64,000 bases of DNA from Escherichia phage RB16: the sequence record NC_014467.1; one strand, written 5' to 3'. The notes under the pieces are model-generated. The model had not been told where the DNA came from. It did not search any database and saw only the letters and a program-made list of their open reading frames with translations. Shown here in pieces: positions 53,252 to 55,114 of the stretch (the stretch's first letter is position 1; every line of letters starts with the position of its first letter). Position numbers and translations under genes: made by a program.

Positions 53252-54601
53252 TTAAAAGTTGTCTTCGACGAATGCTGCCAGGCGTCCACGATACACAGTA
53301 TTCAGGATTATGTGACTAGCATGGTCATATTCTTTAAGTTTTTCAACAGCATAGACAAAACCGTTGTTTACAGCAGTGTTTCGCGGGTTGTCAATCTGCT
53401 TAATATTCCCGCATAGTATCAGAAGTGTGTTCTCTCCGCAACGGGAAATAATGGATTTTATTTCATGGTTGCTCAAGTTTTGACATTCGTCAACAATCAG
53501 CACTGAACCTTTACCAGGATCTGGGTGTCCGATAGAACGCCCACGGAAGTAATACAGGCTGGGGAACTGTACAACACCTTTCTCTAACAGCCCTTCGACG
53601 TACTTATCAACTTCCGGTTGATCCTTAAACAGAATGTTCAGGCTTGTAATACATGGTTCAATAGACGGTCGTAATTTTTCGCCCAGTGTACCAGGTAAGA
53701 ACCCGATTTCTCCCGACAGCGGGCTATCCGATTTTACATACATCACATTGGCAAAATGACCCGCACTTACCAGGTGCATAGCACCAGCAACCGCCAGCAT
53801 TGTTTTACCGGAACCAGCCGCGCCCATAATGGTCACTGCATCAATGTTTTTATCCAGAATGGAATCAACGAAAGACGCTTGCAACGCATCGCGAGGTTGA
53901 ATGGTTTTCATCAGCTTGCGTTTCATCAGGTGTTCGTGTTTCAACGGCAACACTTCAAGCTGAAACTCTCCAGCATCCACCACACGCCCGACAACCTCAC
54001 CACCAGACAGAATGTATTGGTTAGGGTAGAAATCTACCTTATAGTCGGCAAACGACGCATAGCTAATCAATGCAATGTCACCATTGTACCCGACAACATC
54101 AACGATGTTCCAGAAGTCGGTCAGTTCAATATAACCGGAATACAGAACATCACTATCTTTCAGTGTGTCATCGCCCGTGTACTGTTCAACAGGGCAACCC
54201 TTAGACATTGCGATCAGCAGCATATTGATATCGCGGGTTACTAAGGTCGCTTTCTCCTGCAAACAGGTAGCGATAATGCGAGCATCTTGCTTATCAAGCG
54301 GGAACTCTTCACCACCGACATAATCGACGATACGCAGAGTAACGCTATCGGGTAAAGCTGGGTTTGTTTGACCCAACGAAACCCCAGTTTGGGTAATTGC
54401 TTCATACTTCTGTCCCAGGACAATTTTAGACAGAAGTCGGATCACTAAACGTGCTTCGCGGGAAGTGTGTTCCTTTGATTTCAGGTGATCCAGTTCTTCC
54501 ATTGTTGCAGCGGTAATGATGATCTCAGTACCAGGGGCAACATAAGAATAGATTGAATATGGGTTCGAGATTAAAACGTTGGTATCTAGAACATATTTCA
54601 T
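53252..54601 (-). CDS. PIN-domain PhoH-like ATPase (PhoH2-type)
   Basis: N-terminal PIN-like YVLDTNVLISNP; Walker A GAAGSGKT; Walker B LIVDECQN. Confidence 0.8.
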   Translation of the reverse strand: MKYVLDTNVLISNPYSIYSYVAPGTEIIITAATMEELDHLKSKEHTSREARLVIRLLSKIVLGQKYEAITQTGVSLGQTNPALPDSVTLRIVDYVGGEEFPLDKQDARIIATCLQEKATLVTRDINMLLIAMSKGCPVEQYTGDDTLKDSDVLYSGYIELTDFWNIVDVVGYNGDIALISYASFADYKVDFYPNQYILSGGEVVGRVVDAGEFQLEVLPLKHEHLMKRKLMKTIQPRDALQASFVDSILDKNIDAVTIMGAAGSGKTMLAVAGAMHLVSAGHFANVMYVKSDSPLSGEIGFLPGTLGEKLRPSIEPCITSLNILFKDQPEVDKYVEGLLEKGVVQFPSLYYFRGRSIGHPDPGKGSVLIVDECQNLSNHEIKSIISRCGENTLLILCGNIKQIDNPRNTAVNNGFVYAVEKLKEYDHASHIILNTVYRGRLAAFVEDNF

Positions 54602-54655
54602 AGAAGTTTTCCTGTTAATTGCGAGGTACGCGGATTCGCACCCCGCGTAATGCAA

Positions 54656-55114
54656 TTACATACCCAAACGGATAATGTGAATGTATGGGAAAGGATGCAG
54701 GTTACTATTTCTCATGCAGATCATGAGTGTTTGAACCAGTTCCCAACGGTCATCAAATTTTGTGTTGCATTCATCAAAAATCAGGTTGATAGCCTGATGC
54801 TCGATACGTCTACCACGAAAGATTGTGGTTAAATCCTGTCTGCTAGACAGCAGCATCAGATTTTCACAGTCGGCTTCAAATCGTTGGGCTTCACCTACTG
54901 CAAGTTGCTTTGTCGGGGCAACATAGATGTTCAGTGTACCTTTCGACTGTCTGATAATTTCAAACGCCGCTTTCGTTTTACCAGATCGACGGCCCATATC
55001 AAGCGCCGTTTCAAACACTGCAACGCCCGTTGTATCTGCTTGTCCTTCCATTACGCGCATCAGGTGCATATTGCGCGATTGCTTAACAGCATCAACGTAA
55101 AATTTTGAAAACAT
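54656..55114 (-). CDS. small P-loop NTPase-like protein (152 aa)
   Basis: Walker A-like GRRSGKT and Walker B-like LIFDEC. Confidence 0.45.
   Translation of the reverse strand: MFSKFYVDAVKQSRNMHLMRVMEGQADTTGVAVFETALDMGRRSGKTKAAFEIIRQSKGTLNIYVAPTKQLAVGEAQRFEADCENLMLLSSRQDLTTIFRGRRIEHQAINLIFDECNTKFDDRWELVQTLMICMRNSNLHPFPYIHIIRLGM

Follow-up and report, generated by a model that had tools for sequence, protein, structure and literature searches.

A stretch of 64,000 nucleotides from Escherichia phage RB16 (sequence record NC_014467.1), referred to here in its full length as the window, carries on its minus strand a gene that is by sequence a phage PhoH2, in which a PIN domain with a complete acidic active site is fused to a PhoH ATPase domain with all of the motifs of that family. 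Directly upstream of it in the direction of transcription lies a gene for a 152-amino acid (aa) P-loop protein, here called mini, which on sequence and modelling evidence is a real, conserved, single-domain ATPase-like protein. It is rather probable that the locus as a whole comprises a PhoH2 that would act as an ATP-driven, RNA-cutting helicase and, beside it, an independent ATPase-like neighbour related to the Vs.8 protein of phage T4. The source DNA is that of an RB16-type Pseudotevenvirus (a T4-like phage), with the 152-aa protein being 100 % identical to RB16p146, and over the region it shares 92 % nucleotide identity with phage RB43 and 94 % with Buttiauxella phage GuL6. The PIN-PhoH gene is already known: it has been catalogued in RB43/RB16-type phages, and it belongs to a family that is characterised in bacteria.

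In the open reading frame (ORF) listing the two genes occupy 53252..54655 (467 aa from TTG) and 54656..55114 (152 aa from ATG), both on the minus strand. The likely start of PhoH2 is the ATG at 54601, with AGGA nine nucleotides upstream, which gives the 449-aa product annotated in RB43ORF157c and Maroon_151, while the eighteen additional codons of the TTG-started ORF are an intergenic hairpin read in frame. The original prediction, made from the letters of the sequence, had proposed a PhoH2-type fusion and domain searches as a check. These searches gave matches well above chance to PIN_4 (PF13638; E 3.4e-15, 56.9 bits against a cut-off of 21.9), PhoH (PF02562; E 9.2e-34, 117.2 bits against a cut-off of 27) and, among the PHROGs, phrog_2765 (1e-165). 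Together with the full-length alignment to the NCBIfam model NF053827 ('RNA 5'-3' helicase PhoH2'; residues 2-447 on model positions 3-421 of 427) they bear out the fusion. The statement that T4 lacks PhoH was likewise borne out for PhoH2, the best tblastn match in the whole T4 genome being the dda helicase (E 0.058). The RB16 and RB43 proteins share 98.7 % aa identity, and the ratio of non-synonymous to synonymous substitution rates (dN/dS) of the gene is 0.04-0.17.

An alignment was made of 18 proteins, the closest coming from related phages and the most distant being full-length gammaproteobacterial homologues at 33-36 % identity. The four PIN acids D6, E36, D106 and D124 are invariant in 18/18 of these phage and bacterial sequences, as are the ATPase motifs, including Walker A, GFLPG, RGR, DE.Q, GN..QID and a C-terminal Arg. 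Absence of the catalytic acids on alignment had been named beforehand as the result that would overturn the PIN assignment, and this objection fails because all four are present and invariant. Within the PIN domain, D6, D106 and D124 align to chain residues D13, D115 and D154 of the SMG6 PIN structure (PDB 2hww), which we take to be D1251, D1353 and D1392, the three catalytic aspartates. This profile match is weaker than that of the ATPase to the PhoH structure of Corynebacterium glutamicum (PDB 3b85), which was recovered at 3e-20 with the single sequence and at 6e-39 with a profile. Over its last 215 residues the RB16 protein aligns end to end with PhoH of this type (E. coli PhoH/YbeZ), which itself has no PIN domain. 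The AlphaFold model (predicted local distance difference test, pLDDT, 84) comprises a PIN fold (residues 1-140), a beta-rich middle (157-219) and the ATPase (239-449), with the PIN region adopting the alpha/beta PIN fold at a pLDDT of mostly 80-95.

The PhoH family serves as a marker of marine phage diversity, and to our knowledge none of the phage genes of this family has been shown to have a particular function. In the list of novel RB43 ORFs of Nolan et al. 2006 (PMC1524935), RB43ORF157c, the orthologue of the RB16 gene with the same neighbours, the same domain pair and no material difference, appears as 'PhoH-like protein, PIN domain'. Bacteriophage PhoH2 is noted by Matelska et al. 2017 (PMC5499597), whose classification of PIN domains places the fused PIN_4 in the VapC/SMG6 RNase group, and Iyer et al. 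2021 (PMC7824862) discussed PIN-PhoH proteins in jumbo phages, terming their role enigmatic. As summarised in PMC4826407, the PhoH domain of the mycobacterial and Thermobispora PhoH2, the only ones for which this activity is known, binds and unwinds RNA in an ATP-dependent, 5'->3' manner and the PIN domain is an RNase, while the mycobacterial gene is co-transcribed with a small upstream partner, PhoAT, which binds PhoH2. Furthermore, a host PIN-PhoH was reported to lower the replication of phage Syn9 in Synechococcus (PMC12038028).

The bacterial proteins (Mycobacterium tuberculosis, M. smegmatis and Thermobispora bispora) and RB16 PhoH2 have in common the full-length PIN and PhoH arrangement, the PIN acids and the PhoH motifs. 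The RB16 protein is ~35 % identical to its nearest bacterial relatives, and the phage clade is distinguished by a six-residue insertion before Walker B. Judged by the description of PhoAT, it does not appear to be preceded by an overlapping gene of that type; the small gene upstream belongs to the P-loop Vs.8 family, lies 54 nucleotides away and is found elsewhere with no PhoH2. A toxin-antitoxin role of RB16 PhoH2 is unlikely, because the gene sits in a lytic phage. An RNA-directed activity is most likely, by analogy with mycobacterial PhoH2 biochemistry (as summarised in PMC4826407 and PMC7824862). By the same analogy with characterised bacterial PhoH2, the protein would use ATP to load on RNA and then unwind or translocate 5'->3', and would pass the RNA on to be cleaved at the PIN site. 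In the infected cell PhoH2 may then help to turn over or process RNA of the host or the phage.

It is very unlikely that PhoH2 is instead a phosphate-starvation auxiliary metabolic gene, or an enzyme acting on DNA rather than RNA. Database names do label it 'phosphate starvation-inducible', and the PhoH domain is akin to SF1 DNA helicases, with weak AAA_30 and AAA_19 matches and Dda as the best match in T4. However, the phosphate name derives from the regulation of E. coli phoH and not from an activity, there is no phosphate-related gene near PhoH2, PIN_4 fused to PhoH falls in the RNase group named above (PMC5499597), and the PhoH2 proteins characterised so far unwind and cut RNA, as summarised in PMC4826407. 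Membership in a defence system was also considered and rejected, with PADLOC giving generic helicase-motif matches only.

Turning to the 152-aa protein, the original prediction had credited it with its own Walker A/B-like motifs, and these were found again, with a P-loop fold predicted. Its description as following PhoH2 is right in plus-strand coordinates and wrong in terms of transcription, in which it lies upstream. The Walker A motif (G41-R-R-S-G-K46-T47) is situated between a predicted strand (32-38) and helix (46-56) and is deviant (M-G-R-R-S-G-K-T), with Met at the first position of GxxxxGK[ST]; Walker B reads N-L-I-F-D114-E115-C116. Across the family K46, D114 and E115 are invariant or nearly so, with T or S at position 47, and the conserved series is LD.GR.[ST]GK[ST], FRG, hhFDEC and a C-terminal hhhhG. 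G41, R42, K46, E115 and G151 remain invariant down to ~20 % identity. The AlphaFold model (pLDDT 85; predicted template modelling score, pTM, 0.83) is a single alpha/beta domain in helix-strand-P-loop-helix order. The features checked for the RecA-like (ASCE) P-loop nucleoside triphosphatases (NTPases) are present, namely a strand-loop-helix Walker A, a Walker B (hhhhDE) ending a strand, and the alpha/beta fold. A stand-alone RecA-like nucleotide-binding domain is confidently predicted by the model. As there is no second RecA domain, NTP binding or hydrolysis by mini probably requires an oligomer or a partner protein.

Comparison of mini against Pfam (above threshold), NCBIfam and PDB sequences gave no match, and its PHROG is phrog_2586 (5e-36), of unknown function. 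Foldseek comparison against viral models recovered many other uncharacterised phage proteins of ~150 aa with this fold. The family is small, with a first profile finding 11 clusters at 50 % identity among 1.84 billion proteins and a wider profile about 60 sequences, all of about 150 aa. Judged by its sequence matches it is confined to T4-like phages, with T4 Vs.8 as a distant member. The mini gene is under purifying selection (dN/dS 0.10-0.27); at non-synonymous sites it changes about three times as fast as PhoH2. In the RB43 reference record (L001 5873-6265; L011) a frameshift in a T-run within the Walker B codons shortens the product to 130 aa, and the small upstream ORF is thus intact in RB16 and frameshifted in that record. 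The resequenced RB43-GVA (L018 2008-2466) has an intact 152-aa ORF, so the frameshift is probably a sequencing error or a strain difference, and the truncated form was rejected as proof that mini is dispensable.

It is highly improbable that mini is merely what decay has left of a larger ATPase gene (a PhoH duplicate, a helicase or a large terminase), with no function of its own. It comprises one RecA-like domain only, has no above-threshold Pfam match, evolves faster than PhoH2 at non-synonymous sites, is frameshifted in the one RB43 record, and in some lineages has lost the glycine of GK[ST]. Against decay stand the low dN/dS, the constancy of the ~150-aa length and of the motifs over about 45 sequences down to about 20 % identity, the compact fold that the model predicts with confidence, and the intact ORF in RB43-GVA. 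As for membership in the PhoH, helicase and terminase families, PF02562 was not found in any of 15 family members even at E<=10, and the GFLPG segment is absent; the family aligns with the PhoH domain only weakly and colinearly, best over FRGR...DEC (hhalign 86-89 %). The Pfam DEAD and AAA_14 matches are sub-threshold (best DEAD E 0.011), and, in contrast to SF1/SF2 helicases, mini has neither a second RecA domain nor motifs III-VI with the arginine finger, but ends right after the strand that follows Walker B. The Arg four residues before the Walker Lys is a pattern of large terminases, and the Walker A of the terminase large subunit (TerL) of Pectobacterium phage POP12 shows it as well (SRQLGKT). 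A terminase fragment was tried as a candidate in view of the similar Walker A and of one GenBank homologue named 'terminase large subunit', and was rejected, with hhalign against POP12 TerL giving a probability of 3 %. No Pfam Terminase match was found for mini, and its single 152-aa domain differs from the large terminase ATPase (T4 gp17) in having no nuclease domain and no room for one at the C-terminus.

Several observations weigh against the combined reading of an RNA-cutting PhoH2 and an independent mini-ATPase. PhoH2 scored 98.6 bits against the NF053827 equivalog cut-off of 680, so that an activity identical to that of bacterial PhoH2 cannot be assumed; by this sequence comparison the phage protein is of the same architecture and of a distant lineage. 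A literature search turned up neither biochemistry nor expression studies on any phage PhoH2 or on a member of the mini/Vs.8 family. The glycine before the Walker Lys (G45) is replaced in some mini members, by Q in the KP15 group and by C in P0030, which raises doubt about catalysis in those lineages. Scans for promoters, terminators and the late-promoter consensus inside the gene block gave chance-level results only. Finally, in all of the RB43-type lineages examined, including those in which mini identity is as low as about 30 %, mini and PhoH2 are adjacent on the same strand, with a conserved spacer of 48-55 nucleotides, and among isolated phages mini occurs in 170 records and RB43-type PhoH2 (at least 60 % identity) in 175, nearly one to one.

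This last pair of observations could be explained by a two-gene module, in which mini would bind and control PhoH2 as a PhoAT-like antitoxin or as an extra ATPase subunit of a PhoH ring. The co-transcription of bacterial PhoH2 with a small upstream binding partner, as summarised in PMC4826407, and the weak colinearity between the mini family and the PhoH domain are consistent with such a module. It nevertheless appears rather unlikely. The complete genome of phage POP12 has an intact mini after an M15 peptidase gene and no PhoH2 (best tblastn E 0.97). Distant mini members in other T4-like contigs adjoin genes for a cell-wall hydrolase (Hydrolase_2), a dNMP kinase and ThyA, with no PhoH2 beside them, and T4 has Vs.8 but no PhoH2. 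Conversely, phage PhoH2 genes of 30-54 % identity occur with no mini, their neighbours being SIR2 and an unrelated ~100-aa ORF, and the bacterial PhoH2 genes examined are also without a mini gene. In KP15-like phages (L012, L014-L016), as in some Pseudotevenviruses, a gene for an HNH-AP2 homing endonuclease has been inserted exactly between the mini stop and the PhoH2 start and replaces the spacer. The adjacency is also not independent evidence, because it lies inside a larger syntenic block. The pairing implied by the original prediction is therefore not supported, in view of POP12, the distant members and the HNH insertion, and on sequence comparison mini and PhoH2 are most likely independent neighbours, with their adjacency mostly a matter of synteny.

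Divergence between the same phage pairs also differs for the two genes. The synonymous substitution rate (dS) is 1.6-2.2 for mini against 0.7-0.8 for PhoH2, which suggests different histories of the two genes, an argument that is soft owing to saturation. The proportion of synonymous differences (pS) between RB16 and Lw1, CfP1 and Maroon is 0.66-0.71 for mini against 0.46-0.49 for PhoH2, which may point to a boundary of recombination within the spacer, the site of homing endonuclease insertion.

An old residence of mini at this site is suggested by its relation to T4. When an extended mini-family profile was compared with all six-frame ORFs of T4, a single match, Vs.8 (T4p119), was obtained at E 5.8e-7, and hhalign of the mini family against Vs.8 gave a probability of 96 % (E 3.5e-9). 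There is no tblastn match, the similarity being visible to profiles only. The motif series of Vs.8 (LRLDGGRQSGKS ... FRGL ... YIIDEP ... VIGMQ) parallels that of mini, with LDxGRQSGK[ST] ... FRG ... hhhhDE ... hhhhG-M common to both. Vs.8 differs in its length of 219 aa, in an N-terminal extension of about 65 residues and in 'DEP' in place of 'DEC'. It is assigned to phrog_1488, with phrog_2586 as its second-best PHROG, and Vs.8 and the metagenomic members P0034 and P0167 match both PHROGs. The order of genes in T4 is denV, vs.8, vs.7 ... vs.3, regB, vs.1, vs, tk.4, tk, while that in RB43/RB16 is endolysin, mini, PhoH2, two zinc-ribbon ORFs, ORF154, vs.1 ... vs, tk.4, tk. The genes for Vs.8 and mini thus have the same surroundings, on the upstream side of vs.1, vs and tk; the literature search found no paper naming vs.8. 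The profile matches and the corresponding gene orders therefore suggest that mini has long been resident in this part of T4-like genomes. PhoH2 and the two zinc-ribbon genes lie between the ancestral vs.8-like gene and vs.1, where T4 has vs.7-vs.3 and regB, and were probably inserted there.

The spacer between mini and PhoH2 contains a GC-rich hairpin (RNAfold -21 kcal/mol, z -2.7). It is kept in all spacers with no HNH insertion, wholly replaced where the HNH gene is inserted, and in RNAalifold analysis of the spacer has 10 pairs, three of them with compensatory changes. There was no Rfam match, no tRNA call and no second copy in the window. A known RNA or a tRNA remnant was accordingly rejected, and the element stays a conserved hairpin only. 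In RB16, RB43 and Maroon, mini and PhoH2 share a reading frame, with one TAA and an open spacer of 18 codons (54602-54655 in RB16) between them. Readthrough of the stop codon fusing mini to PhoH2 is ruled out by an in-frame TAA in one related spacer (L003) and a spacer length of 55 nucleotides in another (L004).

The slot of PhoH2 upstream of vs.1 also matches that of regB, which in T4 lies just upstream of vs.1 and encodes an early-mRNA endoribonuclease. In the complete RB43 genome (L032-L035) RegB was not detected (tblastn E<=0.01, phmmer E<=1), nor were MotA, AsiA, Dmd and Vs.7 by tblastn at E<=0.01, while tk, regA and vs.1, which served as positive controls, were all recovered; RegB was also not found in the window. 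Because of this position and the lack of a detectable RegB in RB43, PhoH2 could substitute for RegB, as a non-orthologous replacement, an ATP-powered endoribonuclease coupled to a helicase, that would inactivate early or host mRNAs under control aided by the mini-ATPase and the hairpin. The idea is speculative, drawing on position and absence only, and is unlikely to be correct. The RegB fold is unrelated to PhoH2 and has no ATPase, and functional equivalence is conjecture.

Table 1. Coordinates in the window of the PhoH2 and mini genes, their domains and motifs, and the limits of the gene block
Feature	Position	Strand	Remarks
PhoH2 gene	53252..54601	-	449 aa + stop; orthologue of RB43ORF157c; phrog_2765
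PIN_4 nuclease domain	54179..54595	-	residues 3-141; Pfam PF13638
PIN acidic residues	D6 54584-54586; E36 54494-54496; D106 54284-54286; D124 54230-54232	-	
PhoH ATPase domain	53288..53902	-	residues 234-438; Pfam PF02562
PhoH2 motifs	Walker A GAAGSGKT 53801-53824; Walker B DECQN, D371-E372 53486-53491	-	also GFLPG, FRGRS, GNxxQID, R438
GC-rich spacer hairpin	54621..54646	-	within the 54-nt mini/PhoH2 spacer, just upstream of the PhoH2 Shine-Dalgarno
mini P-loop gene (RB16p146 / RB43ORF158c)	54656..55114	-	152 aa; phrog_2586; distant relative of T4 vs.8 by profile match
mini gene motifs	Walker A 54974-54994; FRGR 54809-54820; Walker B 54767-54787	-	
Endolysin, L-Ala-D-Glu peptidase type	55124..55519	-	phrog_465 (1e-54); RB43ORF159c annotation; directly upstream of the mini gene
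Terminator-like hairpin AAGCCCCGAAAGGGGCTTTTTTGT	56366..56390	-	upstream limit of the gene block; direct reading; Maroon annotates a terminator at the same position
Terminator hairpin	50994..51024	-	downstream limit of the block; direct reading; part of a repeated promoter/terminator cassette, repeat family D1

Within the block (Table 1) the order of transcription is endolysin, the 152-aa gene, the 54-nt spacer, PhoH2, two zinc-ribbon ORFs, an ORF154 homologue, an HNH-AP2 gene and the vs.1 homologue. A lysis enzyme gene also precedes the mini homologues of POP12, L025 and L026. The two zinc-ribbon ORFs (Cys-x-x-Cys) directly downstream of PhoH2, at 53017-53214 (-; 65 aa, phrog_2834) and 52833-53009 (-; 58 aa), are kept in RB43 (ORF156c and ORF155c) and are absent along with PhoH2 in POP12. 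An ORF resembling HNH_3 + AP2 homing endonucleases (51674-52234, -; 186 aa) lies between the ORF154 homologue and vs.1, with both Pfam matches being sub-threshold, and at this point RB43 has only a 53-nt gap; the HNH-AP2 gene inserted beside mini in KP15-like phages is related to it. The vs.1 homologue (51029-51677, -), which codes for a lytic transglycosylase of the SLT type bearing a signal peptide, is broken into a pair of ORFs that overlap in different frames, with the junction near 51390-51410 beside an A-rich run; the RB43 counterpart is a single 211-aa gene, and the break could reflect slippage, a pseudogene or an error of sequencing. Between a g100-like gene and the endolysin start lies another hairpin (55545-55575, -), ATACCCTGTGTAGCCCATAGGGTAT with TTTC after it.

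Repeated intergenic cassettes occur elsewhere in the window, at 45638-45682, 50990-51034, 61245-61289 and 62709-62753, as well as at 60036-60075, 60690-60729, 61218-61257 and 62683-62722. They consist of a terminator hairpin (AAAGCCC..GGGCTTTT) and then a conserved AT-rich segment, and resemble the promoter-early stem-loop (PeSL) cassettes of T4-type phages (PMC2839356, PMC4122927). ARAGORN and Rfam agree on two tRNA genes, Met (CAT) at 17781-17857 (+) and Gly (TCC) at 17863-17938 (+).

Neither the phage PhoH2 nor the mini finding changes current understanding unless experiments follow. The orphan T4 gene vs.8 is now tied, through profile similarity, to a family of minimal proteins with a predicted single RecA domain, a family that does not appear to be a PhoH2 accessory. 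The presence of a PIN-fused PhoH in a culturable coliphage would furthermore provide a convenient system for testing the action of phage PhoH proteins on RNA.

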